This document shows, piece by piece, positions 1-16,350 of a DNA stretch of 57,802 nucleotides (positions are counted from its first letter, which is position 1; every line of letters starts with the position of its first letter). The position numbers and the translations under genes are program-made. The notes under the pieces are model-generated. The model was given only the letters and a program-made list of their open reading frames with translations, was not told where the DNA came from and did no database searches. The stretch is taken from assembly GCA_044229075.1 (NCBI GenBank), contig JBGATS010000009.1, positions 1-57,802 of the forward strand, read 5' to 3'. The DNA comes from Minisyncoccia bacterium (GTDB lineage Bacteria; Patescibacteriota; Minisyncoccia; Phycocordibacterales; UBA1006).

Positions 1-537
1 TATGAAGATGTTTTACTCTTAGAACAAGTTCAAAATTCTATACTTTTAATACTGTCTGAGATAACGACGATCGTAACTGTTTTATTATATGCACCTGATA
101 AAAGTATTCAGCTATTCATTAATCAATTACCAGAGCAAGAAAAGATATGCTTAGATGATGTATTTATAACTAACATTGATACCTGTAGAGAAAGTTTAAG
201 CAAAGAGGATTACCTCGATATATTTAGATTACTTTATATTGAGAGACTGATAGAGAATAAAAATATACAGGATATGTTGCAAAGGTTTTTTACAATAAGT
301 AAAAAAACAGGGCAATATTCTGAAATATTTGATATTGATACAACATTTATTAGTAATAATTACTACTATGAGATAAAACAAAAAGTTACACTCCTAAACT
401 TACTTACATCTCAAATCATTTTAAATCTTGAAAAGAAAAATACCAAGATAAATCTTGATATGTTTTTCTTTAATCCATTTATAGATCTAGAGGGCGTCGA
501 GAACTCGCCAGATCTCAACCATAGCGAGAGTATCTAA
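1..537 (+). CDS. Hypothetical protein, 5'-partial
   Basis: Frame 1 is open from base 1 to the stop at 537 (the ORF track starts it at an internal Met, 274). No recognisable motif. The last 51 bp overlap the convergent gene. Confidence 0.6.
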   Translation, partial: YEDVLLLEQVQNSILLILSEITTIVTVLLYAPDKSIQLFINQLPEQEKICLDDVFITNIDTCRESLSKEDYLDIFRLLYIERLIENKNIQDMLQRFFTISKKTGQYSEIFDIDTTFISNNYYYEIKQKVTLLNLLTSQIILNLEKKNTKINLDMFFFNPFIDLEGVENSPDLNHSESI

Positions 538-1980
538 GTGACAATAATCTTGCAATGCTTGAACTTTCATATTCTTTTCATCTTCAGAATACTCTTTAGA
601 CACTATTCTATTCCATGTATCCGATGCGGTGCCGCCTTCTTGGATATGCATATCTTTATAGGACAAGTGTGGCACAAGCGCAGGTAAAACATACTTAATC
701 GACGCACTTCCTTTAAATTTAGGATGATCATACATAGTTGTTTTACCATAAAAAGGAATCATGAGGTCTACAACGCGATCGTTCACAGACTCCATGAATG
801 TCTTGTAATCTGGAATTCGATCTGCGACTTGAGAGTTAATTCCTTTCTCAAAACGCTCATTCCATACAATCACACTTCCTTTTTCAGGGAGGTGTTTTTG
901 TAATGAAGAAGCAAAGAACTCATCAGGATTCTGATCTCCTGTATGAATAAAGTCATAATGCAGTAATTCTCCGTTGGGATTTTCAATTATATGGAGAGAA
1001 TATTGAAACGGTATTTGTTGATATGGACGATAACCATTAAACCGAGGAAGTGCTGATGGGTAGGTCTCATAATCAAGAAATGCAATTGGATAGTGTACAC
1101 GAGAAAGAAAGTCTCTAATTCCAGGTTTATCAATATACTCCTCTCCCGTTTGAGCAGTATCAACTTGTCTTCGTTGATTATCTGATAATGCAAAATCACT
1201 TGGAACATCATGAATACTAAATATATTATTATCTATAAGCTCGATAAGTTTATTCTTATTAATTCGAGATATTGCATGCACAGGATATTCAGGAAGATCA
1301 TGCATTGAGTACTTAGAAGTCGTACAGTGTGAGTTCTTTCCTTTTGTAATACAATCACAGCGACCTGTCGGCTCTGTGTCTTTTGCAAGATACTCATACG
1401 CTCCATCCATTTTTTGTTTTATTTCTGGACATATTTCCGATACTTTGTCGGTAAGATTTTCAATAATGAATAGCTTTGAAATATCTATACCTCCATGTCT
1501 CACATACTCTTTGTTTATACGGATCAAGTTAAAACTACCGATAGTAACACCTAGATCATCTAAAACATTCTTTTGGAAAGAAATATCAATAATATAATCA
1601 TCTGTCTTTCTACCACCACCTTCCTCTGCCACAGTTGAAGATTTAACCTCATACAGATCATATAAACCAGTTTCTTTGTTAAAAACGAAAATATCACAAG
1701 CAGTAGTATATTTACTGGTAGAAAAAACTGGTTGGTAGATAACAGGTGTTTTTTCAGAAACTAACTTCTTAGTTATCTCTGTATCGCCTCTGTTTTCAAC
1801 AGTGATCCCGCCAGGAAAAAGTTGTCTCGCAAGGAGGTCAATCTCATTTCCAGTATCAATAATGTTTTGCTCAAACGAAGATAATGGGTACTTGTTATAA
1901 ATTTCAGGCTTGTGAATTTTTAACCATGCATTTTTTGCACATTCGAGAAAAGTTATAAAGTTGGTTTTGGATAGAATCAT
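487..1980 (-). CDS. DUF2779-family protein (N-terminal PD-(D/E)xK/Cas4-like nuclease, C-terminal RNase H-like domain)
   Basis: LSKTNF..FLECAKNAWL N-terminus; CDIFV...LYEVKSS nuclease motif; FLDYET and YCHLDTLAMV acidic motifs. Start placed at MILSK (1980), not 2016. Confidence 0.8.
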   Translation of the reverse strand: MILSKTNFITFLECAKNAWLKIHKPEIYNKYPLSSFEQNIIDTGNEIDLLARQLFPGGITVENRGDTEITKKLVSEKTPVIYQPVFSTSKYTTACDIFVFNKETGLYDLYEVKSSTVAEEGGGRKTDDYIIDISFQKNVLDDLGVTIGSFNLIRINKEYVRHGGIDISKLFIIENLTDKVSEICPEIKQKMDGAYEYLAKDTEPTGRCDCITKGKNSHCTTSKYSMHDLPEYPVHAISRINKNKLIELIDNNIFSIHDVPSDFALSDNQRRQVDTAQTGEEYIDKPGIRDFLSRVHYPIAFLDYETYPSALPRFNGYRPYQQIPFQYSLHIIENPNGELLHYDFIHTGDQNPDEFFASSLQKHLPEKGSVIVWNERFEKGINSQVADRIPDYKTFMESVNDRVVDLMIPFYGKTTMYDHPKFKGSASIKYVLPALVPHLSYKDMHIQEGGTASDTWNRIVSKEYSEDEKNMKVQALQDYCHLDTLAMVEIWRVLDAL

Positions 1981-2077
1981 ATTAGTAAATATGACATATT
2001 TTAGAGAAAAGTTCATCTATAATATAGATGAACTAAAATAGTTTTCCACAGGAAATATTTTTATACAAAAAATACTA

Positions 2078-3646: not shown

Positions 3647-3991
3647 TTACTTCTGTGACTTAATCCATCCACCGAGCATACGACCAATTTCATCAATGAT
3701 TCCTTGGAGAAGTGTGTACTTCTTTAGATCAAGACTTTTACTTTCTTTCATAAGACGGATGAAGAATCTTATTATATTCAACTTCACACTCGTCTTTTCT
3801 AAGAGAATTATCTTTCTGTCTTTTGAGACATAACTTGCTTCAAGTACAAGCTCAAGGATATCAATGATGATATTTTCTGTCCGTTCGTACACAGAGAATC
3901 TGTCTTGTTTGGGTACCAAATTTCTGTATTCATGAAAAGTTTTATACAACTCATGAATCTTACGGAGTATTGGAACATCATTATCATTCAT
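3647..3991 (-). CDS. avd: DGR accessory variability determinant (Avd, four-helix bundle)
   Basis: 114 aa, basic, with PKQDRF near the N-terminus and C-terminal EIGRMLGGWIK typical of Avd-like proteins; lies between TR and RT. Confidence 0.9.
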   Translation of the reverse strand: MNDNDVPILRKIHELYKTFHEYRNLVPKQDRFSVYERTENIIIDILELVLEASYVSKDRKIILLEKTSVKLNIIRFFIRLMKESKSLDLKKYTLLQGIIDEIGRMLGGWIKSQK

Positions 3992-5047
3992 ATGAGAATT
4001 TATACGAATTTATTTAATAAACTTATTACTCCAGAAAACCTATTTTTTGCATGGGAGGAATTTCGCCGTGACAAGAAAAAGAAAGAAGATGTGCTTATCT
4101 TCGAGAAAAATCTTGAACGAGAAATATTCTCACTTCACCGAGAGCTTAAATCACATACTTATAAACACAGCGGGTATACAGACTTTTATATTTCAGATCC
4201 AAAACGTCGCCATATACATAAAGCACAAGTCAGAGATAGAGTGCTTCATCACGCAATTATGGGTATCTTGTATCCACTGTACGAAAAGACATTTATTCAC
4301 AATTCCTTTTCGTGTCGTATTGGTAAAGGTACTCATAAAGGAGTAGAAGCTCTACGCGGAATGCTCTATAAGGCAAGTAAAAATAACACAAGAAATGTGT
4401 ATATTTTAAAGTGCGATATAGAGAAGTTTTTTGATTCTATCAATCACGAGATATTACTTTTGGTACTTAGTTCACGGATTAAAGATCAAGAACTAATGAA
4501 TCTTTTAACTGAAGTAGTAGGAAGTTTTACTAGTTACAGGTCAACACTTTTTGATAGATGTGGTGTACCAATTGGCAATCTTACTTCTCAACTTTTTGCG
4601 AATGTTTATATGGACATGTTTGATCAGTTCATGAAGCATGAACTTAAGGTGAAATATTATGCACGGTATACTGATGACTTTGTGATAGTAAGCGAGAGTA
4701 AAGAATATCTTGTTCAATTATTACCGCGAATACGGTCATTTCTAAAAGAAAAACTGAAGATACAGATACACCCAAAGAAAGTCACGATCACTAAATTTGG
4801 TCGTGGTATTGATTATCTTGGGTATGTATTATTTCCACACTTTACTTTAGTGCGTAAACGTACACAGAAACGTGCTTTGAGGAAAATAAATGAAAAGATG
4901 CTGCTTTACAAGAAAGAAGAAATTTCAGAAGACAAAGTTCATGCAACTTTAATGTCTTATCTGGGAGTTCTTTCCCACGCAGATACTTTTAGGTTTTCTG
5001 AGAAATTAAAGAATAGCTATTTCTTTAATATGGGTAACTTTGACTAA
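3992..5047 (+). CDS. DGR reverse transcriptase
   Basis: PKRRHI..A.VRDRVLHHA, LKCDIEKFFDSI, GVPIGNLTSQLFANVY (DGR-type), RYTDDF catalytic motif, GIDYLGY. Start placed at ATG 3992 (MRIYTNLF); no maturase/endonuclease tail. Confidence 0.95.
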   Translation: MRIYTNLFNKLITPENLFFAWEEFRRDKKKKEDVLIFEKNLEREIFSLHRELKSHTYKHSGYTDFYISDPKRRHIHKAQVRDRVLHHAIMGILYPLYEKTFIHNSFSCRIGKGTHKGVEALRGMLYKASKNNTRNVYILKCDIEKFFDSINHEILLLVLSSRIKDQELMNLLTEVVGSFTSYRSTLFDRCGVPIGNLTSQLFANVYMDMFDQFMKHELKVKYYARYTDDFVIVSESKEYLVQLLPRIRSFLKEKLKIQIHPKKVTITKFGRGIDYLGYVLFPHFTLVRKRTQKRALRKINEKMLLYKKEEISEDKVHATLMSYLGVLSHADTFRFSEKLKNSYFFNMGNFD

Positions 5048-5080: not shown

Positions 5081-7414
5081 TTATAAAAACTTCTGAAGCG
5101 ACATCACTTTTTCTATATCTGTAATAATAGTCCACTCTCCATTCATAAACACGACAATGCCACCGAACAATTTTTGTGTTTTTCTGCTATTATTTTCTTT
5201 CTCTATATATTCCTGGAGTGCTTCATTCTTGGCTTTAGTGTATGTATCCCTATCTCGGTCATTCTCATCTTTTGTTTCAAAGACACCGATTCTTCCATCT
5301 GTAAATTCTACAAGATAGTCAGGGTAAAAAGTATGTACTTCGCCTTGATATTCATACTTAATACCGAAATAATCTCTTCTCATCTCGCCGTTTTTATACC
5401 ACCAATTTATATCTACCCTTGATTCTAAATATTTTTCAAACTCTCGTTCTGGTTTTGATCTAGATTTAGAAAGATAACAAGGCTGTAGAATACATTTTGT
5501 ATAATTTTCTATCTCTTCGTCCACTTCTTTATTAAAATAATCTTTTTGAACAATTTCAAAATTACTAATGATGTGTTCGGTATCTTCTTTTGCTTTCTTT
5601 TGACGGACAAGGGAGTACTTTTGTACCGCATCTAAAAATATTGGTCTTATTTTTTCTTTATTGAGCAGTAAAAACGATTGAGAACTTAATACTCCGTTAT
5701 TAATAACTTCTTCTCCAAAAAATTCACGACAAGTTAGAAACCATGCAGTAGACATTGCAGGGATTGAACGTGCAATGTTAGTAAATGGAGCCATCATGCT
5801 TTTAAAAAGTGATTTTGAAACAAACTCAACCTGTCGTTCATTTATTTTTAAAGACTGAATATCGCCGTCGTCATCCTCAAAAATATTTTTATAGTTATCC
5901 ACTTCTGTAATATCTAACACGAGATCTTTTATAACCACATGTAAGATATTATCTGTTTCAAATTGCCAGCCATTATCAGATGCTGTAGTTGGTTTTACTT
6001 TTTTTAATTTGGCAATATTATTTTTATGATCACCCTGTTTTAATTCAAGTTTTTCAGAAATAGTTTCAATAAGTATTTTCTTAAAATCAGACTTAATATC
6101 TTGATAGTCTGCACGCTCTTTATAAAAAGAAGTTAGATTAATCGGTTTGTAAAACGATATTCTCTTCGAAGGTTGATCGCCCAGTATTTTTGGACTATAG
6201 CTTTCAATATCAAAACTTGCACTACTTGTATTGGTATATACATACGCCTTATTTAACACTTCAACATCATAGTGTTTTTGCTCTGGCATACGAAGAATTC
6301 TTCCTAGTACTTGTATATTAAATATCTCACTCTCACTTTCTCTAAACTTGAGAAGTATCTGAGCACGAGGACAATCCCATCCTGTATCAATAGCTTGTTT
6401 AAAAAGCAAATATTCTTGAGGTGCATTATTTTCTGAAATTCTTTCTAAATTTCTATCTATCTTATTTTCATCATCCAGCCATACAGACAGTCTATCATCA
6501 CCCAAACTGATTCCTTGAGTATTTTTTAACTGTTCAAGTATCAATTTTTTAACCACTTCTCCACTTTCACTATTCGGGAGTTGTATTAAAAGAAGTGGAT
6601 TAATATCAATATCGTTCTCCTTGTATATACGAGCAAGTTCGTCTCGCTTATTGATAGCAGTACGAAGTATTGCCTCATCACTGTCGTCTGATTCCTTAAA
6701 GTCAAAATCAAAATTTACCAAAATTTGATCCTTGATCATCTGTTCATCAATAACATCTTGTGGGTTAATCTTTTCAATCCAACCCTTACCGTCGATGACG
6801 TCTTCTGCGGATAGTTTTAATACTGGCGTAGCAGAAACCTCAACGGTTAGTGTAGGATCAATAAGATCGATAATCTCTTTTCCTCTTTCTGCATTTGTGT
6901 GACTATGAGACTCATCGATAATAAGAACTATTTTTCTGTTGAGATTTATCGTGTTTTGTAGTATCTCTCTAAAGTTAGTGTGATCACCGTCTTTCATAAT
7001 GATGTTTTTCCAGTCTTGTGTTTTACTATCCTTGGTTCGTATTTTTTCCCAGTTTACTACCATTACAGAGTCTTTCAAAAGCTCATACTGAGAAGTACCA
7101 AAAACATTATCAATACTCTGTACTGTAGGATATCCTTCAAATACTTTTTCTAGACTTCTTCTACTTTGATTATGCAGATCTCCTTTACCGATAGATAGCC
7201 AGATAAATGTCATATCGTTAGGTTTTAATTCTTCTTTGTTTTTGTTAATTAATGACTCGATAAAACTTGCCATCATGATGGTTTTTCCTGATCCTGTTGG
7301 TGCCTGTAATACCGCGTTTTTCTTATCACTTGTTTCACTTTTTAAAAACACAAAAGCCTTCTCCGTAAGAGAATCTACTGCTTTTTGTTGATAATTTTTA
7401 AGAGTTATTTTCAT
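5081..7414 (-). CDS. res: Type III restriction endonuclease subunit (Res)
   Basis: APTGSGKT Walker A, IIDESH, GWDCPRA, QVLGRILRMP, C-terminal PDYLVE...FETK nuclease motif; directly downstream of mod. Confidence 0.9.
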   Translation of the reverse strand: MKITLKNYQQKAVDSLTEKAFVFLKSETSDKKNAVLQAPTGSGKTIMMASFIESLINKNKEELKPNDMTFIWLSIGKGDLHNQSRRSLEKVFEGYPTVQSIDNVFGTSQYELLKDSVMVVNWEKIRTKDSKTQDWKNIIMKDGDHTNFREILQNTINLNRKIVLIIDESHSHTNAERGKEIIDLIDPTLTVEVSATPVLKLSAEDVIDGKGWIEKINPQDVIDEQMIKDQILVNFDFDFKESDDSDEAILRTAINKRDELARIYKENDIDINPLLLIQLPNSESGEVVKKLILEQLKNTQGISLGDDRLSVWLDDENKIDRNLERISENNAPQEYLLFKQAIDTGWDCPRAQILLKFRESESEIFNIQVLGRILRMPEQKHYDVEVLNKAYVYTNTSSASFDIESYSPKILGDQPSKRISFYKPINLTSFYKERADYQDIKSDFKKILIETISEKLELKQGDHKNNIAKLKKVKPTTASDNGWQFETDNILHVVIKDLVLDITEVDNYKNIFEDDDGDIQSLKINERQVEFVSKSLFKSMMAPFTNIARSIPAMSTAWFLTCREFFGEEVINNGVLSSQSFLLLNKEKIRPIFLDAVQKYSLVRQKKAKEDTEHIISNFEIVQKDYFNKEVDEEIENYTKCILQPCYLSKSRSKPEREFEKYLESRVDINWWYKNGEMRRDYFGIKYEYQGEVHTFYPDYLVEFTDGRIGVFETKDENDRDRDTYTKAKNEALQEYIEKENNSRKTQKLFGGIVVFMNGEWTIITDIEKVMSLQKFL

Positions 7415-7430
7415 AAGTATGTATCATTAG

Positions 7431-9221
7431 TTATTTCGTATGACTATTTCGCTTGTAAATAGTTTCATATATTTCAAGTATCTTTTGTGGTACTTCTTCA
7501 ATATTTACTCCTTTCCATTTACGGTAATCATCTATAAAATCAGAGACGTTTCGGAGAGAAAAGATATACGCTGTTTTGTATGTATCTTGGTAACCTTTTA
7601 GGTCATTTCTCATATCCTCGAGATAACTATCGTCTAGATCGTAATAAATACCTACATGATGTTTTTGACTGTTACCTGTATCATCTATTTTAATCCCGCT
7701 ATAAATACGGTACATCAGAGTATCTCCATCTTTGGCTTCTTTTTCTAGATTAAAAGAGTTCTCTTTGAGACAGAGCATTTCAGTACATGCTTTCATGAGT
7801 CTCATTTTCATATTGTCACTATGACGAGTCTTGTCTATGTATTCACATTTTAAATATTCCAAGTTACCACCAAGACCCTCCACCTTTTCTCCTTTCTTAT
7901 TCTTGTATCCTTTCATAACTCTTTTTAGTCTCTCATAAGTTACTTCTTCACAGATATTATTTTCATTATTGGTACAGAGAATATATTGGCGATTACCACC
8001 GTCTTGTTTATTTAGTTCCATTACGGCATGTCCAGTTGTGCCGGAGCCTGCAAAGAAGTCTAAAATAGTAGAATTCTTTTTTGAGGAAATTAAAAGAGAA
8101 TCAATTACGGCGTATAAAGATTTAGGATAGTTAAATAAACCACTATCTCCGAGTATATTTTGAAGGAGTATGGTTCCCCAGGAAGAAGCATTATACTTAG
8201 GCTCATCCCAAAATGTTTTTGGTTTCTTACCTTCACCAAAAGTATTAAGTAATCTTTTTTTGCAATAAATAATATATTTATTTTTGCTCTTTTTAGCACT
8301 TAATTCGGTAAATCTTTTTTCCTCTACAGTCTCTTTTCCCCAACGCCAAACCCTCTCTATTCCAGAAGAGTCGGTGGGATATATTTCAATAGAATTGTCT
8401 CTTTTTTCTGTTAAAACTTCAAGTGTATTTATATCTATGAATAAAGGATAGAAAAGATTTGGTCTATCTGTTCTTTTTGAATTAGAGCCAGTTCTTATAA
8501 AGGATTGTAGTTTATATTTAGATATATCGTCTTCATGTTTAAACTCATCTTTTTGTTCTTCGCTAAAAGGAAGTAAATTTATTTTTGCTTTTTCCGAATT
8601 ATTTGTATAGACAAGCATGTATTCATGTGAGGTTGCAATAAAACGATCATCACTTCTACCGCCTGGGTTATGAACAACTGTTATTGTTCCTAGTCTATTA
8701 TGTTCTCCAAAAACGCTGTCTAAAATAAATCTTGAAGTGTGAATTTCATAATCATCTATTGTGAACAAAAGTATTCCGCCATCAGATAATAAATCCTTAC
8801 TACTACGAACCCTTTTTTCTATAAAAGATATCCACTTACTATGTTTATAAGAATCATCTTTTTCAACATAATCATTGTTATATCTCCAACTCTTATTACC
8901 AGTATTATACGGTGGATCAATGTATATCACATCAATCTTACCTTTATGGGTATAATTCAAAACAGAAAGAGCGTGATAATTATCTCCTTCGATTAATAAG
9001 TTTGTTCGTGAGGTATTATCTGTTACGATTTTTCTATCTTTAATTTCTTTTAAAACTGGGAACTGTTTTTCGCACTGTAAAACAACATCTTCTGGTTTAT
9101 CTTCCCAGACGAGTCCAAATTTTTTCTGCTTCTTTATTTTTTTTAATTCTGTTTCAAGTTCAGAAATACGAACAAGAAGATCCTGTTCGGAATAGTTTTT
9201 TTGTGATGACATAGTGGGCAT
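7431..9221 (-). CDS. mod: Type III DNA methyltransferase subunit (Mod, N6-adenine)
   Basis: NLLIEGDN, IYIDPPYNTG, and LDFFAGSGTTGHA in beta-class order; N-terminal FGLVWE. Confidence 0.92.
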   Translation of the reverse strand: MPTMSSQKNYSEQDLLVRISELETELKKIKKQKKFGLVWEDKPEDVVLQCEKQFPVLKEIKDRKIVTDNTSRTNLLIEGDNYHALSVLNYTHKGKIDVIYIDPPYNTGNKSWRYNNDYVEKDDSYKHSKWISFIEKRVRSSKDLLSDGGILLFTIDDYEIHTSRFILDSVFGEHNRLGTITVVHNPGGRSDDRFIATSHEYMLVYTNNSEKAKINLLPFSEEQKDEFKHEDDISKYKLQSFIRTGSNSKRTDRPNLFYPLFIDINTLEVLTEKRDNSIEIYPTDSSGIERVWRWGKETVEEKRFTELSAKKSKNKYIIYCKKRLLNTFGEGKKPKTFWDEPKYNASSWGTILLQNILGDSGLFNYPKSLYAVIDSLLISSKKNSTILDFFAGSGTTGHAVMELNKQDGGNRQYILCTNNENNICEEVTYERLKRVMKGYKNKKGEKVEGLGGNLEYLKCEYIDKTRHSDNMKMRLMKACTEMLCLKENSFNLEKEAKDGDTLMYRIYSGIKIDDTGNSQKHHVGIYYDLDDSYLEDMRNDLKGYQDTYKTAYIFSLRNVSDFIDDYRKWKGVNIEEVPQKILEIYETIYKRNSHTK

Positions 9222-9249
9222 TTATGTATCAAATTGATATTATTTTTAT

Positions 9250-9385
9250 AAACAAAATGGACACCTCGAAAGGTGCCCACAAGTTGATAACAAAAAGTCA
9301 CCAATCCTGTTTCCGATCAAGGTGTCCATTCTGGACAGGATTGGTACAGCAAAATTACTTGCTTATCATTATCAACTTGTGGGCA
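9250..9385 (-). ncRNA. Candidate structured leader/sRNA upstream of mod-res
   Basis: Nested 17-bp and 11-bp perfect inverted repeats, a terminator-like hairpin with U tail, and TGn-TATATT on the minus strand at 9399-9391. Confidence 0.55.
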
Positions 9386-9521
9386 AATGCAATATAACAT
9401 AAAAACCTTAAAAAATAAAGTACGGGTGGTTTTTCATTGTTTTAGTTACCAACATCTTACCAACAGATACCATCTGAGATGTCTGGACTTCGTCAGCGAC
9501 TTGCGTCATCAATGTGTGTAT

Positions 9522-10868
9522 ATGAATACAACCGACCACATGCCTGGTGCTATGACCGCCAGAGGGATAATAACCGAGACAAAGGTAAAGTACTGTCTAT
9601 ACGCCCGAAAATCGACTGAATCAGAGGAACGACAAGTACTCAGTATAGACAGTCAAATCAAAGAAATGCTTCAACTGGCAGATCGAGAAGGACTTGAAAT
9701 TGTAACCATGAAACGAGAAAGCCACAGCGCAAAAGAAACTGGACAACGACCCGTATTTAATGAAATCGTTCAAGAAATCTCTGAGGGTAAATTCAATGGA
9801 ATACTAACATGGGCACCAGATCGTATTTCTCGAAACGCAGGAGATCTGGGGAGAATAGTAGATCTCATGGATGCAGGAAAACTAGTAGAAATACGAACCT
9901 TTGGTCAAAAGTTCGGTAATAATCCAAATGAGAAATTTCTCCTGATGATCCTTGGTTCACAGGCTAAGCTTGAAAATGACAACCGAGGTATTAATGTAAA
10001 ACGAGGTCTCCGAACACGCGTTGAGATGGGACTCTGGCCAGGTGTGGCACCTCTGGGATATCTCAACCAAAGAGACCTTGATAAAAAATGCCAGTTAATT
10101 ACTGATACATTACGTGCACCTATTGTAAAAAAGATATTTGAAAAGGTAGCCTACGAAAAACTCAGTGGTAGAAAAATCTACAACTGGCTCAAATTTGAAG
10201 CTAACTTTTATACCAGAGGAAATAAGCCACTTACTCTGGCAGGCGTATATAGAATATTAGAAAGTCCGTTCTATTACGGGATGTTTGAATATCCAAAAGA
10301 TAGCGGTAATTGGTATCAAGGAAAACATGATCCATTGATTACTAAAGAATTGTTCGACCAAGCTCAAGCACAATTAAAACGAGATAATATACAAAGAGAA
10401 AACAAAGAATTCGCATTTACGAAATTATTCACCTGTGGATACTGTGAAAGTGGAATATCAGCAGAAGAAAAGTGGAAACAGCTCAAAGATGGTACCCATA
10501 CAAAATATATCTACTACTCATGCAGTCGAGCACGAGATAGAAACTGTAAAAACAAGTACATTCGTGAGGAGGAACTTATTACTGAAATACTTAAAATACT
10601 TGATGAAGTAAATATAAACGAACTTGGTATGAGACAGAAGCTAGAGGATGAAATTGCTCGATTTAATATATTCCAAAGATCCGTATTAGGAACAACGGTA
10701 AAGTCAGACAAGGATATCGTGACCGATATCCGAAACTATGCAAAGTATATTCTCAAAGAAGGTACAGTTACAGAAAAACGCGAATTGCTCGCGAATTTAA
10801 GGAGTAGGATTGTGTATAAGGATAAGGAACTTACCTTAGTTAATTATCAAAGAGACCAATATTTTTAG
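9522..10868 (+). CDS. Large serine recombinase (resolvase, recombinase and zinc-ribbon domains)
   Basis: YCLYARKSTE catalytic Ser motif, PDRISRN, APLGY, GKHDPLI, CGYC...YYSC...C zinc ribbon. Start placed at 9522 or slightly later. Confidence 0.92.
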   Translation: MNTTDHMPGAMTARGIITETKVKYCLYARKSTESEERQVLSIDSQIKEMLQLADREGLEIVTMKRESHSAKETGQRPVFNEIVQEISEGKFNGILTWAPDRISRNAGDLGRIVDLMDAGKLVEIRTFGQKFGNNPNEKFLLMILGSQAKLENDNRGINVKRGLRTRVEMGLWPGVAPLGYLNQRDLDKKCQLITDTLRAPIVKKIFEKVAYEKLSGRKIYNWLKFEANFYTRGNKPLTLAGVYRILESPFYYGMFEYPKDSGNWYQGKHDPLITKELFDQAQAQLKRDNIQRENKEFAFTKLFTCGYCESGISAEEKWKQLKDGTHTKYIYYSCSRARDRNCKNKYIREEELITEILKILDEVNINELGMRQKLEDEIARFNIFQRSVLGTTVKSDKDIVTDIRNYAKYILKEGTVTEKRELLANLRSRIVYKDKELTLVNYQRDQYF

Positions 10869-11679
10869 ATCTATGTATTCTCAATCGCTCAACCATTATC
10901 TCTAAATGATACTTTGTGGTTAACTTTTCCGCTTTATATAAAGCATATCTACTTCTTATGGGACTATTGAATGATTTATACTCTGTTGATAATGCTAAGT
11001 ATGCATCAGCAAGATTTCCCCAAGCTTGTTCCTCTTTAAAACATCTAATCGCTTCCTTTATGTATCTTATAGAGTCTTTGCTGATGGCAACAGACCTCTT
11101 TCGAGATTCTTTATCTATCAAGAAGAAAAGATCCATGTTTAAAAAACGAATTATTTTCAGCATAGCAATCTTTGACCTCCAAGGTCTACCAGAACCCATT
11201 TTGTATAGCGTAAACTGTAAGTAAAAATCACCATAAACTTCTCCCGCTATTTGGTAGCAATAGCCAGCAGGACCAACATAGGCTTTCTTTTTTAGATATT
11301 CAAAGCCGGTATTTAGGTATGACTGTATGACACCCCATGATTCGTTTACTTTTTTATCTAGTTCCTCGTACCTATTCTTCTCATTCTTCAAAGCATGACT
11401 GAACCACCCAAGTGCAAGAGTAAGATTTTTCATCTCATGAATTAGTTCAGGTGTCTTGGAAATTTCTGCCTTTGCTTTCATTATATAAAACTGTGCCAAC
11501 ATTTCGGTTCTGCCTAGTTTTTCTGCACACACTATTGAAGCGTTGCACACCAAATGAATTTTATCAGCATCTTGAATAGGCTTCAGAGTACTCAAAAGAT
11601 CTCCTAACTTTTGAAGGACGATATTCAAATCGGGATCAGAGGCAATAATATTAAGTATTTCTTCTTTAATTTTTTCCAT
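10840..11679 (-). CDS. Hypothetical alpha-helical (TPR-like) protein
   Basis: Long ORF with AGYCYQIAGEVY and LADAYLALS helical-repeat-like segments. Start uncertain (11679, 11691 or 11724); overlaps the stop of the DUF4238 gene. Confidence 0.65.
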   Translation of the reverse strand: MEKIKEEILNIIASDPDLNIVLQKLGDLLSTLKPIQDADKIHLVCNASIVCAEKLGRTEMLAQFYIMKAKAEISKTPELIHEMKNLTLALGWFSHALKNEKNRYEELDKKVNESWGVIQSYLNTGFEYLKKKAYVGPAGYCYQIAGEVYGDFYLQFTLYKMGSGRPWRSKIAMLKIIRFLNMDLFFLIDKESRKRSVAISKDSIRYIKEAIRCFKEEQAWGNLADAYLALSTEYKSFNSPIRSRYALYKAEKLTTKYHLEIMVERLRIHRSKNIGLFDN

Positions 11680-12637
11680 ATTTTCTTTCATGTTTTTTCC
11701 AGAGTCTTTTTGACTTGTAGTCATGGATAAATATTTTTATCTTGTATTGCAAAACCTTAAAGATAAATATCGGATCAAGCGGAACTTTGTAAAACCAGAC
11801 CCATTTTTTATTAGGCGTTGATGAAACAAATTCTTTATCACAGTGCCCTCGAGTCATACGATTTAAATCCTCAACCTGGGTCCCAGTTAGAAGACCGTAT
11901 CCGTGATAATTAGCCCAAGAAAACATTACAGTTATTTCTGGAGATAACGGCAAAGTAAGCTGAATATTTTTTTGACCAAAACCAGGACCATAGAACCGTT
12001 GCCATTGAAGATCTGGGTTGAATAGAACACATGGTTCATCAGATGTTATAAAAGGATATTTCTTTATGTCTGGAGAACAAAGAAAAGCGATATTCATTTG
12101 CTTAATGATATTTGCCAAAAACGGCAGGCTGTCCATTAGTTGCAGTTTATGGATATCCTTTTTGTATTCTATCCATTCTTGAACTTGTTTTGAAGCTGTA
12201 ACCCCATATGCCAATGCTATTTGTGTACCGTGATCAATGAGTTGCTGAATGAATCCTTCCTGGTTTCTTTTAAATCGGAGAGTTCTTTGAAGTTGCGCAG
12301 CAACAAAGATACATAGATATGCATGCTCATGATCAGATAAAGGCTTTTTGGCTTTTACGGTTTTCATCACCTCTACAAACTTACCCTCTATCCTTGAAAG
12401 ATTTGTTTCAATAGAAAAATCTTTTACTCCATTGAAATTAATAGTGTATAGATGATTTTCTGTAAAAATGTTAGCAGGTGATCTTTTCTTCTTCTCTTTT
12501 CCATTTTTACTAAAAACCCACACATAAGGTTCATAACCAGTGGGAGTATTAGGATCAGTAAATTCAGAAAGATAGCACCTTGGAACAAAGTGCTGACTCG
12601 TGGGACCTTTTTGTTCTTTCTTAATTTTTTTTGACAT
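11666..12637 (-). CDS. DUF4238-family protein
   Basis: N-terminal QHFVPRCYLSEF, IETNLSRIEG, FITSDEP and LPLSPEI motifs. Confidence 0.8.
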   Translation of the reverse strand: MSKKIKKEQKGPTSQHFVPRCYLSEFTDPNTPTGYEPYVWVFSKNGKEKKKRSPANIFTENHLYTINFNGVKDFSIETNLSRIEGKFVEVMKTVKAKKPLSDHEHAYLCIFVAAQLQRTLRFKRNQEGFIQQLIDHGTQIALAYGVTASKQVQEWIEYKKDIHKLQLMDSLPFLANIIKQMNIAFLCSPDIKKYPFITSDEPCVLFNPDLQWQRFYGPGFGQKNIQLTLPLSPEITVMFSWANYHGYGLLTGTQVEDLNRMTRGHCDKEFVSSTPNKKWVWFYKVPLDPIFIFKVLQYKIKIFIHDYKSKRLWKKHERKYGKN

Positions 12638-14093: not shown

Positions 14094-14181
14094 TTCCTAA
14101 AAACAAACAGGTATACTGTTTGTTTTTTTAAATAATCATAAAACCTATCCCAATACCGTGCAGATATGTTATAGTGAAACC

Positions 14182-16350
14182 ATGGACGCAAAAACTCCAC
14201 TCGTAAAAATACTGAAAATCACTCCTGATCAAAAAAAGTCATTATCACGACTCTCACTTATTACTGTTCAAGATTTATTAATGCATTTTCCAGTACGATA
14301 TAACAATGTAGGGACACTCACCCTTATCGACCATGCCAACACTGGAGACGAAGTAACGATATACGGCGAATTAACAGGACTTATTGCTACAAAAGGTTTC
14401 AAAACAAAAATCCCTATGACGAAGGGGTTATTTCGTGATATTGCGAATACTTCTATTGCTGTTGTTTGGATGCACCAACCTTATCTTGCAAAGATGTTCC
14501 CTGATGGTTCATTGGTAAAATTAACAGGAAAAATCAGTGACGGGAAAAATGGTCGTGTGTTTATGAATCCCCATATTGAAAAAACAAAACATCTCCCGAT
14601 TGATGTTTCTGATTCCCTTTTTACTGACACCGATCAAGAGTCAAGTATTGGATTCCCGATATACCCAGAAACGCGCGGTATCACCAGCAAGTGGTTATAT
14701 CATGCTGTAAAAAAAATCTGTACCCAAAAACTACATACAACAATTACTGATCCGATTCCCCCTCAAGTTTTAAAAAAATATAATCTCCCTGACCTAGCAA
14801 CCGCTCTGTTATGGATTCATTTCCCAACAAGACGTGAACATGCGGAGGCCGCCAAAAAACGATTCGCATTTCAGGAAATATTTTTGATCCATTTGCAAAA
14901 AGCGTTCGAACGTAAACAGTATCAACAATTATTTTCTTTTAAACTTTCTGTACCAAAAAAAGACGTCACTGATTTCATTAATGCATTCCCTTTCAAACCA
15001 ACAACTGGGCAAATGGATGCACTAAATCAGATTTTCCGAGATATTGAATCCGACGAGCCTATGTCACGCTTAATCGAAGGTGACGTAGGATCCGGAAAGA
15101 CATTTATCGCAGCCGTTGCAAGTTATGCAACCATTATGAATCGTCCAGGTGACCAGACATACGGAAATCTGCAAGTTGCATACATGGCACCAACGGAAGT
15201 GCTTGCCGTGCAGCTGTTTGAAAACTTTATCGAATATTTTAAAAACACAGGAATCAGTATTGGATTGGTCACGGGTTCCGGTTGTCGTAAATTCCCTACC
15301 AAGGTTGCTTCAAGTCAAAAACCATGGACGGAAATTTCAAAAACTCAACTCACCAAATGGATTAAGTCTGGTGAAATTGCAATCACAGTTGGAACGCATG
15401 TATTGATTTCGAAATCCATTGATTTTCATGATCTTGGCTTGGTAATTATTGATGAGCAACATCGATTTGGAACCAATCAACGGATGAAGCTCGCGAAAAA
15501 AGAAGGCCATGCGCCACATTATCTGTCCATGACCGCAACACCGATTCCACGAACACTTGCTCTGACCATTTATGGAGACCTCGATATTTCTGTACTCGAT
15601 ACGATGCCATCCGGACGAAAGCCGGTGATTACAGAACTGGTAAGTCCTGATAAACGCGAAACTTCATACGACCGTATGCGCACAGAGCTTAAATCAGGAC
15701 GCCAAGCATATGTGATCTGTCCACGAATTTCAGACCCAGATCCAGACGAGGAGCAAAAATTGCAATTACGAAGCGTAACCGCAGAGGCAAAAAGACTTCA
15801 GGAGAAAGTGTTTCCAGATTACACCATTGGAATCATGCATTCAAAAATGACAAAACAGAAGAAAGAAGAGGTGATGCAAGAATTTGCAAATCATGAAATC
15901 GATATTCTGGTTTCCACATCAGTAATTGAGGTTGGTGTAAATGTACCCAACGCAAGTGTTATGATCATCGAAGGAGCCGAGCGATTCGGATTATCACAGT
16001 TGCACCAATTACGTGGACGTGTTATGCGAAGCTCGCACCAGCCCTACTGTTTCCTGTTTACCGAATCAATGGGTGACGTTACGGAAAAACGATTGAAGAG
16101 TTTTTTGGAAGCAAAAAATGGATTCGAACTTGCTGAAATGGATTTAAACTTGCGCGGTGCTGGAGATCTTTTAGGATTAAAACAATGGGGTATGTCCGAC
16201 CTTGCTATGATTGCATTGCGAAATATAAAACTCGTTGAATATGCACGAGAAGAAGCAAAACAATTACTCTCCTATGACCCAACATTAGAAACACATATAC
16301 CTCTTCATCAATTCATTAAAGAAATACAAAAAGTTCCGCATTTGGAATAA
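14182..16350 (+). CDS. recG: ATP-dependent DNA helicase RecG
   Basis: RLIEGDVGSGKT, MAPTEVLA, IIDEQHRFG, MTATPIPRTL, RFGLSQLHQLRGRV. Start placed at 14182. Confidence 0.97.
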   Translation: MDAKTPLVKILKITPDQKKSLSRLSLITVQDLLMHFPVRYNNVGTLTLIDHANTGDEVTIYGELTGLIATKGFKTKIPMTKGLFRDIANTSIAVVWMHQPYLAKMFPDGSLVKLTGKISDGKNGRVFMNPHIEKTKHLPIDVSDSLFTDTDQESSIGFPIYPETRGITSKWLYHAVKKICTQKLHTTITDPIPPQVLKKYNLPDLATALLWIHFPTRREHAEAAKKRFAFQEIFLIHLQKAFERKQYQQLFSFKLSVPKKDVTDFINAFPFKPTTGQMDALNQIFRDIESDEPMSRLIEGDVGSGKTFIAAVASYATIMNRPGDQTYGNLQVAYMAPTEVLAVQLFENFIEYFKNTGISIGLVTGSGCRKFPTKVASSQKPWTEISKTQLTKWIKSGEIAITVGTHVLISKSIDFHDLGLVIIDEQHRFGTNQRMKLAKKEGHAPHYLSMTATPIPRTLALTIYGDLDISVLDTMPSGRKPVITELVSPDKRETSYDRMRTELKSGRQAYVICPRISDPDPDEEQKLQLRSVTAEAKRLQEKVFPDYTIGIMHSKMTKQKKEEVMQEFANHEIDILVSTSVIEVGVNVPNASVMIIEGAERFGLSQLHQLRGRVMRSSHQPYCFLFTESMGDVTEKRLKSFLEAKNGFELAEMDLNLRGAGDLLGLKQWGMSDLAMIALRNIKLVEYAREEAKQLLSYDPTLETHIPLHQFIKEIQKVPHLE

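Follow-up and report, generated by a model that had tools for sequence, protein, structure and literature searches.

We describe a folded RNA leader that precedes a type III restriction-modification (R-M) operon, mod-res, on the minus strand of a contig from a Minisyncoccia bacterium (GenBank assembly GCA_044229075.1, contig JBGATS010000009.1, positions 1 to 57,802). This whole stretch of 57,802 nucleotides (nt), contig C3 of a genome of 721 kb and 98% completeness, is called the window below. The leader is a real feature of conserved design, and its form in the window is a structural variant, new here, of a class that resembles LOOT RNA (Rfam RF03000). The reading that we favor, to which we give slightly better than even credence from the sequence, is that the element is a cis-acting leader of mod-res that would work as a double lock, on transcription termination and on masking of the start codon. 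The parts of the leader and the genes beside it are as follows.

9391-9399, minus strand: extended -10 element TGTTATATT, read from the sequence and matching the usual promoter form of the genome.
9369-9385, minus strand: 5' arm ("a") of the long stem P1, whose first seven bases, UGCCCAC (9385-9379), are the presumed RNA 5' end; 17 bp, perfect, present in the minimum free energy (MFE) fold.
9348-9363, minus strand: internal hairpin P2 (GCAAGU-AAUU-UUGCUG region), present in the MFE and centroid folds, without comparative support.
9299-9346, minus strand: hairpin P3 with an 11-bp stem, whose apical segment 9333-9317 is the 5' partner of a predicted pseudoknot; found by repeat search, -18.0 kcal/mol alone.
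9274-9290, minus strand: 3' arm ("a prime") of P1, whose end GUGGGCA (9280-9274) is the contested segment, common to the terminator; seen in the sequence, repeats and folds.
9250-9279, minus strand: terminator-like hairpin (9279-9258) and U-run (9257-9250), with 9269-9253 as the 3' pseudoknot partner; listed by the terminator scan, pseudoknot duplex -28.0 kcal/mol.
9203-9231, minus strand: start-codon hairpin with loop AAUGCCCAC (9222-9214), which holds the copy "a2" of UGCCCAC (9220-9214), and with the AUG in its 3' strand; fold -3.9 kcal/mol.
7431-9212, minus strand: type III mod, 593 amino acids (aa) from its MSSQ start; Pfam N6_N4_Mtase (1.1e-28) and paralog alignment.
5081-7414, minus strand: type III res; Pfam ResIII (5.7e-19).
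9387-10868, plus strand: divergent open reading frame (ORF) of a large serine recombinase, outside the RNA and given for context; Pfam Resolvase, Recombinase and Zn_ribbon_recom.

On the minus strand, the extended -10 element is of the TGnTAnnnT type, and the long stem begins five bases beyond it. The 5' arm of P1, UGCCCACAAGUUGAUAA, has a perfect 17-bp complement at 9290-9274, and the repeat search extends the outer repeat to 24 nt at 88% (9274-9297 with 9362-9385). Inside P1 lies a second perfect stem of 11 bp (9345-9335 with 9310-9300, repeat search), and the loop segment 9330-9320 above it is perfectly complementary over 11 bp to 9266-9256, a pairing that extends to 17 nt at 88% (9253-9269 with 9317-9333). 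The tail forms a hairpin, UGGGCACCU-UUCG-AGGUGUCCA (one G-U pair, -13.2 kcal/mol), followed by UUUUGUUU. The terminator scan lists it as 9280-9257 (minus) and reports two sites within 9100-9700, compared to 0.3 expected from shuffles. A generic -35/-10 promoter scan does not list the extended -10 at 9391-9399. These primary elements had all been described in the first-pass annotation, made from the letters alone. The sequence, the repeat search, the terminator scan and the hairpin energy agree with its account of the -10, the two stems, the apical loop pairing, and the UUCG hairpin with its U-run (9279-9250), and correct only its spacing of 6 nt between the -10 and the stem, which is 5.

The stretch 9392-9240 (minus, 153 nt) has an MFE of -54.3 kcal/mol (z = -6.11), and none of 200 shuffles was as stable. 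On the plus strand the same stretch reaches -51.0 kcal/mol (z = -6.12), and because the two strands fold nearly equally, the energy of the window copy alone does not fix the strand. Beyond the U-run, the first bases of P1 occur a third time, in a copy that the first-pass annotation had overlooked: UGCCCAC stands at 9220-9214, one base 5' of the mod AUG at 9212-9210, and the repeat search matches 9198-9220 to 9274-9296 (23 nt at 78%). The alignment of two Mod paralogs places the mod start at 9212 rather than at 9221, since both begin MSSQ.

The second of these paralogs has a leader of its own. The same genome (G000) carries another mod-res operon on contig C7 (G000:C7:93134-97300, locus L017), whose Mod is 43% identical to that of the window. 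Its leader has the same order of parts in different letters. An extended -10, TGCTATATT, precedes a long stem in which UGUUCCCCAUAU at the start pairs with AUAUGUGGGGAACA at the end; a terminator-like hairpin overlaps the 3' arm of the stem and is followed by UUUUUGUUUG; and UGUUCCCC fills all three places that UGCCCAC fills in the window, recurring immediately 5' of the AUG. The C7 leader folds at -65.4 kcal/mol (z = -7.9), and it was this leader that drew attention to the start-codon copy in the window. Upstream of it are two ORFs without a Pfam match (450 and 438 aa), a second large serine recombinase and, beyond the recombinase, a tRNA gene. A third Mod C-terminal fragment, a 337-aa ORF 49% identical, is found at G000:C12:15308-16306 (minus), where it runs off the end of contig C12.

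Leaders of this design are also present in other genomes. Mod homologues were found in 37 of 401 genomes sampled from the taxonomic class and in 32 of 401 from the order, and upstream DNA was read for the 29 class loci and 22 order loci at which the match reached the Mod N-terminus; four of these had less than 130 nt of flank. The leader is present at six of the class loci (L017, L018, L021, L024, L033 and L019, which is the window) and at six of the order loci (L050-L054 and L064). With the window and its paralog set aside, it precedes 10 of 49 other Mod loci, and the remaining loci have small helix-turn-helix-like ORFs or unrelated genes upstream. A scan of metagenomes with a pattern made of two blocks conserved in one group of these leaders, type A, returned 24 stretches, comprising 22 leaders and 2 coding false positives; four were duplicates over the compared stretch. 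Where enough flank was available, the gene downstream was mostly of the same Mod family; other genes were an N6_N4 methylase with ResIII (L080), an RDD membrane protein (L082) and unknown proteins (L094).

The leaders fall into three classes. Three of them match LOOT (L033 at 91 bits, L064 at 79 and L024 at 64, against a cut-off of 46.4). LOOT itself occurs in 29 of 151 genomes of the taxonomic class, with four copies in the genome studied here and none within the window. Type A, which includes the C7 leader, has no Rfam match at E up to 1. A covariance model of type A (R1; 21 sequences, 151 positions, 46 pairs, alignment A3) scores the C7 leader at 78 bits and, among 151 genomes of the order, detects type A in 3, our own included. 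A diverged type A-like element (L133, G046:C2:134167-134314, minus, 51 bits) is followed directly after its U-run by the ATG of a 163-aa membrane protein, without a stem copy. The third class is the form in the window. An Rfam search of 8800-9900 at E up to 10 listed neither LOOT nor a riboswitch; its best match, BjrC1505 at 23.7 bits against a cut-off of 50, is below threshold and was set aside as chance. R1 gives its top match in the whole window (both strands, filters off) to 9386-9251 (minus), at full length, with 15.6 bits and E ~0.03, compared to 12.1 bits for the next match; these E-values are rough. What aligns is the outer stem and the terminator segment; 67 unrelated bases take the place of the inner 83 model positions, and a whole-genome R1 search at E up to 1 does not list the window leader. 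Within the match, the terminator segment 9250-9279 aligns to the conserved GCUCGGCUGUCCCUUUUUG of type A, with GCUGUCCC changed to GGUGUCCA and the partner GGGGCAG changed to match, to UGGACACC, at two paired positions (read by eye). The first-pass annotation had known no family for the element; LOOT and its sister class share the design, though the LOOT model misses the window copy.

Comparative evidence from type A supports a folded RNA. The same annotation had named an Infernal/Rfam search and covariation in homologous leaders as checks; the former gave no above-threshold match in the window region, as described above, and the latter, run on the 21 type A sequences, gave support. Among these sequences, 86.9% of cells are paired and 14 pairs change on both sides, whereas slid partners give 38-52% and 5-9 pairs; 0 of 500 shuffles match the covariation score. 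These figures are somewhat overstated, given the relatedness of the sequences and the use of one of them to derive the structure. An RNAalifold consensus (alignment A2) suffered because sub-lineages differ by one base in the register of the outer stem and the terminator, and since P1 is counted in one register, its pairing is undercounted. The type A antiterminator helix, in which an internal A/G-rich segment pairs with the terminator 3' half and the U-run, is 97.9% paired; of its 16 pairs, 8 are invariant, 7 vary on one side and none on both. One internal type A helix consists mostly of U-G pairs.

The homologues also bear on the direction. Among 25 leaders, 21 have the lower fold energy on the mod-sense strand, with a margin of at most 22.9 kcal/mol (9-23 in diverged lineages, only 2.2 in the window); in the other four, the antisense strand is ahead by a small amount. 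A TGnTAnnnT element ends 5-6 nt 5' of the stem in 20 of 25 distinct flanks, against a chance of ~0.04 per flank. When the three LOOT-type flanks, in which the stem is internal, are set aside, 20 of 22 show this spacing, and the other two misses carry CGATAGAAT. This spacing implies that the RNA begins at the base of the long stem and that transcription runs to mod. Together, the strand-specific G-U pairs, the covariation and the conserved -10 spacing bear out the earlier proposal of a minus-strand, mod-sense RNA leader.

The feature that unites many of these leaders is the short sequence found at the foot of the stem and again before the start codon. Its copies are identical within each leader and different between lineages: UGCCCAC in the window, UGUUCCCC on C7, GUACCCC in the L018 group, GUUCACC in L050, L052 and L100, GUCUACC in L080, CCCAUCCCUG in L024, ACUGUUCAGGUAU in L033 and CCCACCACAG in L064. 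We refer to it as the address. When the 3' arm was paired against the 39 nt around the start codon, the best duplex lay directly 5' of the codon in 13 of 13 leaders, with energies of -12.2 to -25.1 kcal/mol; in the window, the best duplex of a prime with the start region falls on 9220-9214 (-13.3 kcal/mol). In the window, in type A and in several LOOT-type leaders, the copy lies in the loop of a hairpin that carries the start codon in its 3' strand. No spare base separates the copy from that strand, so pairing of the copy and the start-codon hairpin are mutually exclusive. The same address feature precedes three small membrane proteins and one unknown protein at the four LOOT copies of our genome (G000:C5:73476-73603, C4:63524-63649, C4:42205-42322 and C1:41329-41451, all on the plus strand). 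Each of these has a 10-14 nt copy of the 5' strand of its address hairpin 3-5 nt before the next start codon, and a loop complementary, with G-U pairs, to a terminator-like hairpin.

Several properties of the genome bear on a start codon as the point of control. Shine-Dalgarno (SD) sequences are nearly absent genome-wide, with an SD-like 4-mer at -18 to -4 in 8 of 321 long ORFs compared to a 12% in-gene background, which makes accessibility of the start codon a plausible control point. Many ORFs have a TGnTAnnnT element 7-12 nt 5' of the ATG, as leaderless mRNAs would show, and the genome encodes RNase III.

The energies of the competing folds outline how the leader might switch. With P1 closed, the window fold reaches -58.9 kcal/mol. 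Enforcing the terminator gives -55.3 kcal/mol and opens only the basal 6 bp of P1, and enforcing the start-codon copy pairing gives -49.6 kcal/mol, 9.3 worse than the MFE. The pseudoknot duplex lies outside these nested-fold totals. The first-pass annotation had taken the long stem and the terminator to be mutually exclusive folds. They do compete, and this part of the claim stands, but the overlap is confined to the basal 6 bp and the folds are only 3.6 kcal/mol apart. Prefix folding indicates that P1 closes once 9274 is made, before the terminator 3' half exists.

In the double-lock reading, the extended -10 at 9399-9391 would drive minus-strand transcription of the leader, with the first base at or beside 9385. 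The segment GUGGGCA (9280-9274) would then have three mutually exclusive partners: the RNA 5' end UGCCCAC (9385-9379), which closes the base of P1; the terminator 3' half (9266-9258); and the copy at 9220-9214 in the loop of the weak start-codon hairpin. In the presumed ON state, P1 would be closed and the loop 9333-9317 pseudoknotted to 9269-9253, blocking the terminator and holding the G-rich segment away from the start codon. In the presumed OFF state, the basal 6 bp of P1 would be open, the terminator would be completed, and transcription would stop in the U-run 9257-9250 to leave an RNA of ~135 nt. In any transcripts that escaped, the free G-rich segment could pair with the start-codon copy and mask it. 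Candidate triggers for opening the base of P1 are 5'-end processing, RNase III, transcription kinetics or a further factor. The start and stop of transcription at these points, the identity of the ON state and repression by start-codon pairing are our inferences; no other assignment has both levels acting in the same direction.

A number of observations weigh against this reading. The empirical p-values of the start-codon duplexes (0.0045-0.045) are singly weak, with a null that includes the leaders' own copies. An exact repeat that is at least 9 nt long and ends at most 14 nt from the start codon is present in only 10 of 33 LOOT copies, and of the 33 control flanks taken upstream, 2 show any repeat of this kind; eight LOOT copies inspected by eye had no start-codon repeat, and the type A members L094 and G046 have no start-codon copy. 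The R1 match to the window is weak, its E-values being rough. The window form is a singleton, as a DNA search of 60 relatives found no homologue of 9222-9385 and matched only the mod N-terminus, the recombinase gene and a promoter-proximal AT-rich stretch. Because the window form lacks close homologues, P2 and P3 have no covariation support, and the two strands of the window are nearly equal in fold energy (2.2 kcal/mol apart). The leader has no identified sensor domain. Because it must open the start-codon hairpin, the pairing there could be activating instead of repressing.

Two contigs of unknown strand, from the metatranscriptome runs X17 and X18, overlap the leader: one of 151 nt covers 9274-9424 with one mismatch at a depth of 2.6, and one of 269 nt, from a variant, covers 9291-9549 at a depth of 4.1. 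Both cross the predicted promoter and so neither show nor exclude the proposed start, and they could represent DNA carry-over or plus-strand RNA. The high-depth pieces of the RNA libraries are conserved mod and recombinase parts of relatives. In X17, a 923-nt contig from a relative, at a depth of 208, joins the mod N-terminus (9078-9126) to the recombinase N-terminus (9591-9637) with 440 letters between them, compared to 464 in the window; since it spans the gap between the two genes, the relative's intergenic region is present in the RNA library at high depth. A leader peptide was also considered and dropped, as only tiny, non-conserved ORFs were found (UUG-CCC-ACA-AGU-UGA and AUG-AUA-AGC-AAG-UAA).

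An alternative that we consider unlikely, but worth keeping in view, is that the element is a free-standing small RNA (sRNA) of ~135 nt, from 9385 to the U-run at 9250, which would act through its G-rich segment on the mod mRNA or elsewhere, with mod itself transcribed from a weak second promoter, TGATACATA (9231-9223). Rfam files LOOT under gene/sRNA, the hairpin and U-run pass the terminator scan, and the terminated form folds at -54.3 kcal/mol. The frequent -10 elements close to ATG codons in this genome fit a second promoter, and the C7 paralog has a TATAAT 21 nt before its ATG. However, the candidate second -10 in the window lacks the final T of the genome motif, and most type A leaders show no -10 between terminator and start. 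The antisense segment would moreover be locked in P1 by the RNA's own 5' end. Strict adjacency to one downstream gene and a private address in each copy point to action in cis, against an sRNA.

A second alternative keeps the leader in cis and reverses its logic. Pairing of the G-rich segment with the start-codon copy would open the hairpin and activate translation, perhaps through an RNase III cut that yields a leaderless mod mRNA, and the RNA 5' end would serve as a delaying decoy. This we regard as rather improbable. In its favor are the fit of the copy in the loop, with 0 nt before the 3' strand, that makes the two pairings exclusive; the 3' arm and terminator segment of type A, which form a continuous complement of ~20 bp to GGAUAGCCGAG and the copy, a fold that is the MFE in the homologues L077 and L081; and a genome that is SD-poor, seemingly rich in leaderless genes and equipped with RNase III. 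Reversed logic is incoherent with antitermination, however, in that a closed P1 would give read-through but a silent mRNA. In the window, the start-codon fold lies well above the MFE, by the 9.3 kcal/mol given above, and the start-codon hairpin to be opened is weak.

It is very unlikely that the folded RNA is instead a plus-strand product, a long 5' untranslated region of the recombinase mRNA. The plus-strand fold is nearly as stable (-51.0 kcal/mol, z = -6.1), a promoter-like site lies at 9215-9243 (plus), and the RNA-library contigs run from 9274 or 9291 past 9399 towards the recombinase gene. On the other hand, the two promoter-like sites match the shuffle expectation of 1.8, only the minus strand has a U-run after the hairpin, leaders exist without an adjacent recombinase, and the homologues favor the mod-sense strand with a conserved -10 that reads to mod.

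Least credible of all is that the repeats act as DNA, as an att or inversion site of the serine recombinase, a Mod recognition site, or a miniature inverted-repeat transposable element (MITE). The window stems are almost perfect and fold equally on both strands, 12 of 26 leader loci have a divergent large serine recombinase at a distance of 125-525 nt, and an independent DNA run has a contig break at 9203-9219. That run is, however, continuous across 9274-9385, and its being contiguous across 9219-9700 means that no inversion is seen. The recombinase is 3-4 kb away in 5 of the 26 loci and absent from the flanks examined in 9, and the recombinases of the window and of G037 are 89% identical whereas the repeats differ (UGCCCAC compared to UGUACCCC). 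The leader is single-copy in the 721-kb genome and thus not a MITE; other matches are 14-27 nt with E >= 0.125, and the arm sequences are unique except for chance matches of one 10-mer and one 11-mer. On contig C6, a long ORF contains a 16-nt match, which was likewise set aside as chance. A comparison of recognition regions led us to reject the Mod recognition site: Mods whose regions are 88-92% identical (L021, L051 and L077 compared to L052 and L100) carry different addresses, and Mods that share an address have regions only 17-47% identical. Homologues also rely on G-U pairs, with one strand better in 21 of 25. The att site and the MITE, which the first-pass annotation had named as outcomes that would refute it, are thus disfavored by a single-copy leader whose repeats do not track the recombinase.

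The surroundings of the leader have the appearance of an island. The window and G037 share 71% identical DNA over 9457-9640, yet they have different leader classes and Mods. The similarity stops near TGTTGGTAA, which occurs twice in the window, at 9446-9454 and 9457-9465 (plus), as TTACCAACA. Loci with a neighboring recombinase include L021, L050, L051, L054, L085, L095 and L098, along with the window itself at 9446-9640 (plus). This pattern, read from the sequence, suggests that R-M cassettes are exchanged beside the recombinase. The recombinase probably begins at an ATG within 9522-9552, because its Resolvase domain starts only at residue 71 of the ORF. On the other side, a 380-aa reverse transcriptase ORF (3905-5047, plus; RVT_1, 3.6e-26) converges on the 3' end of res and may be a further defense gene or a retroelement of the same island. 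Three further neighbors lie within 10840-12637 (minus) and 487-2016 (minus): one ORF encodes a DUF4238 protein (8e-33), another a DUF2779 protein (1.3e-37), and the remaining one has no Pfam match. RecG, at 14158-16350, is probably part of the core genome.

Control of type III R-M expression is poorly understood, and our literature search for a leader or attenuator RNA of type III R-M systems found nothing relevant. Saccharibacteria are reduced episymbionts whose regulatory RNAs are largely uncharted. To our knowledge, LOOT is a published motif to which no function has been assigned. Our analysis provides LOOT-like RNAs with a hypothesis that can be tested by mutation: three leader classes would follow one logic, in which many copies carry a private address three times and place it at the start codon. 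If this is true, the leader would be a compact, portable switch able to travel with mobile defense cassettes beside a serine recombinase, and a switch that can be carried and re-addressed would explain the recurrence of the motif before unrelated genes. We speculate further, and with considerable doubt, that LOOT-like Saccharibacteria leaders form a modular platform in which a terminator/pseudoknot core is combined with a rewritable address of 7-14 nt, written at the 5' end or hairpin strand, as its complement and at the start codon, so that each copy is tied to its gene. In such a scheme, an RNase III cut would release a leaderless mRNA, and the leader would serve as a time-delay fuse while a mobile R-M cassette becomes established.

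Of the known RNAs, LOOT is the closest to the leader in the window. LOOT RNA is Rfam RF03000 (Weinberg et al. 2017, PMC5737381). In the main text of PMC5737381, the motif is not described, and the only occurrence of the word is an author name in the reference list. Among the main texts searched, LOOT is mentioned in PMC7657543 alone, as a case of unusual covariation, with ~43 base pairs, six helices and 28 cross-covariations. An address in three segments might, we suppose, underlie this cross-covariation pattern. LOOT and the window leader are found in the same host group, and in our reading of the copies both have a terminator-like hairpin with a U-run and, upstream, a second hairpin with an apical loop complementary to it (in the window, the 17 nt at 88% and -28.0 kcal/mol described above). 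A subset of LOOT also resembles the window in repeating the 5' strand of the hairpin 0-5 nt before the next start codon (the 10 of 33 copies with an exact repeat of at least 9 nt, and three Mod-linked copies). The first hairpin of LOOT (CCUAA...AUGG) and the two GAAA/GNRA-type hairpins that follow its address hairpin are, in contrast, absent between 9385 and 9250. Unlike LOOT, the window has a long stem that encloses two hairpins and whose 3' arm overlaps the terminator 5' strand, and its pseudoknot partner is the terminator 3' strand, compared to the terminator loop in LOOT.

Type A shares with the window the -10 spacing, a long stem at the 5' end that has its first bases repeated at the start codon, a 3' arm that overlaps the terminator, and an antiterminator pairing onto the terminator 3' half and U-run. 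The terminator segments can be aligned (UCG-GGUGUCC-UUUU in the window, UCGGCUGUCCCUUUU in type A). The type A core, CCGAGUUCCAUAA ... GGCUGUCC, is absent from the window leader, in which only GGUGUCC resembles it, and the internal domain of type A, ~83 model positions with the CCGAGUUCCAUAA core, corresponds to the 67 unrelated bases of the window. With respect to riboswitches, the internal domain of the window form could be aligned neither with type A nor with LOOT, and it has no conserved ligand core.

Among mechanisms, the leader can be compared to two established kinds. In terminator/antiterminator attenuators, mutually exclusive helices choose between termination and read-through, and the window has the predicted equivalents: a G+C-rich hairpin, a U-run and a competing upstream helix. 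In the hok mRNA and the IS10 transposase mRNA, control is by fold-back: the translation start can be masked by an upstream stretch that is complementary to it. Compared to these systems, the leader shows no evident leader peptide, tRNA, ligand pocket or antisense partner. What it has of its own is a third element, a copy of the start region placed at the 5' end of the RNA, which would neutralize the masking segment.

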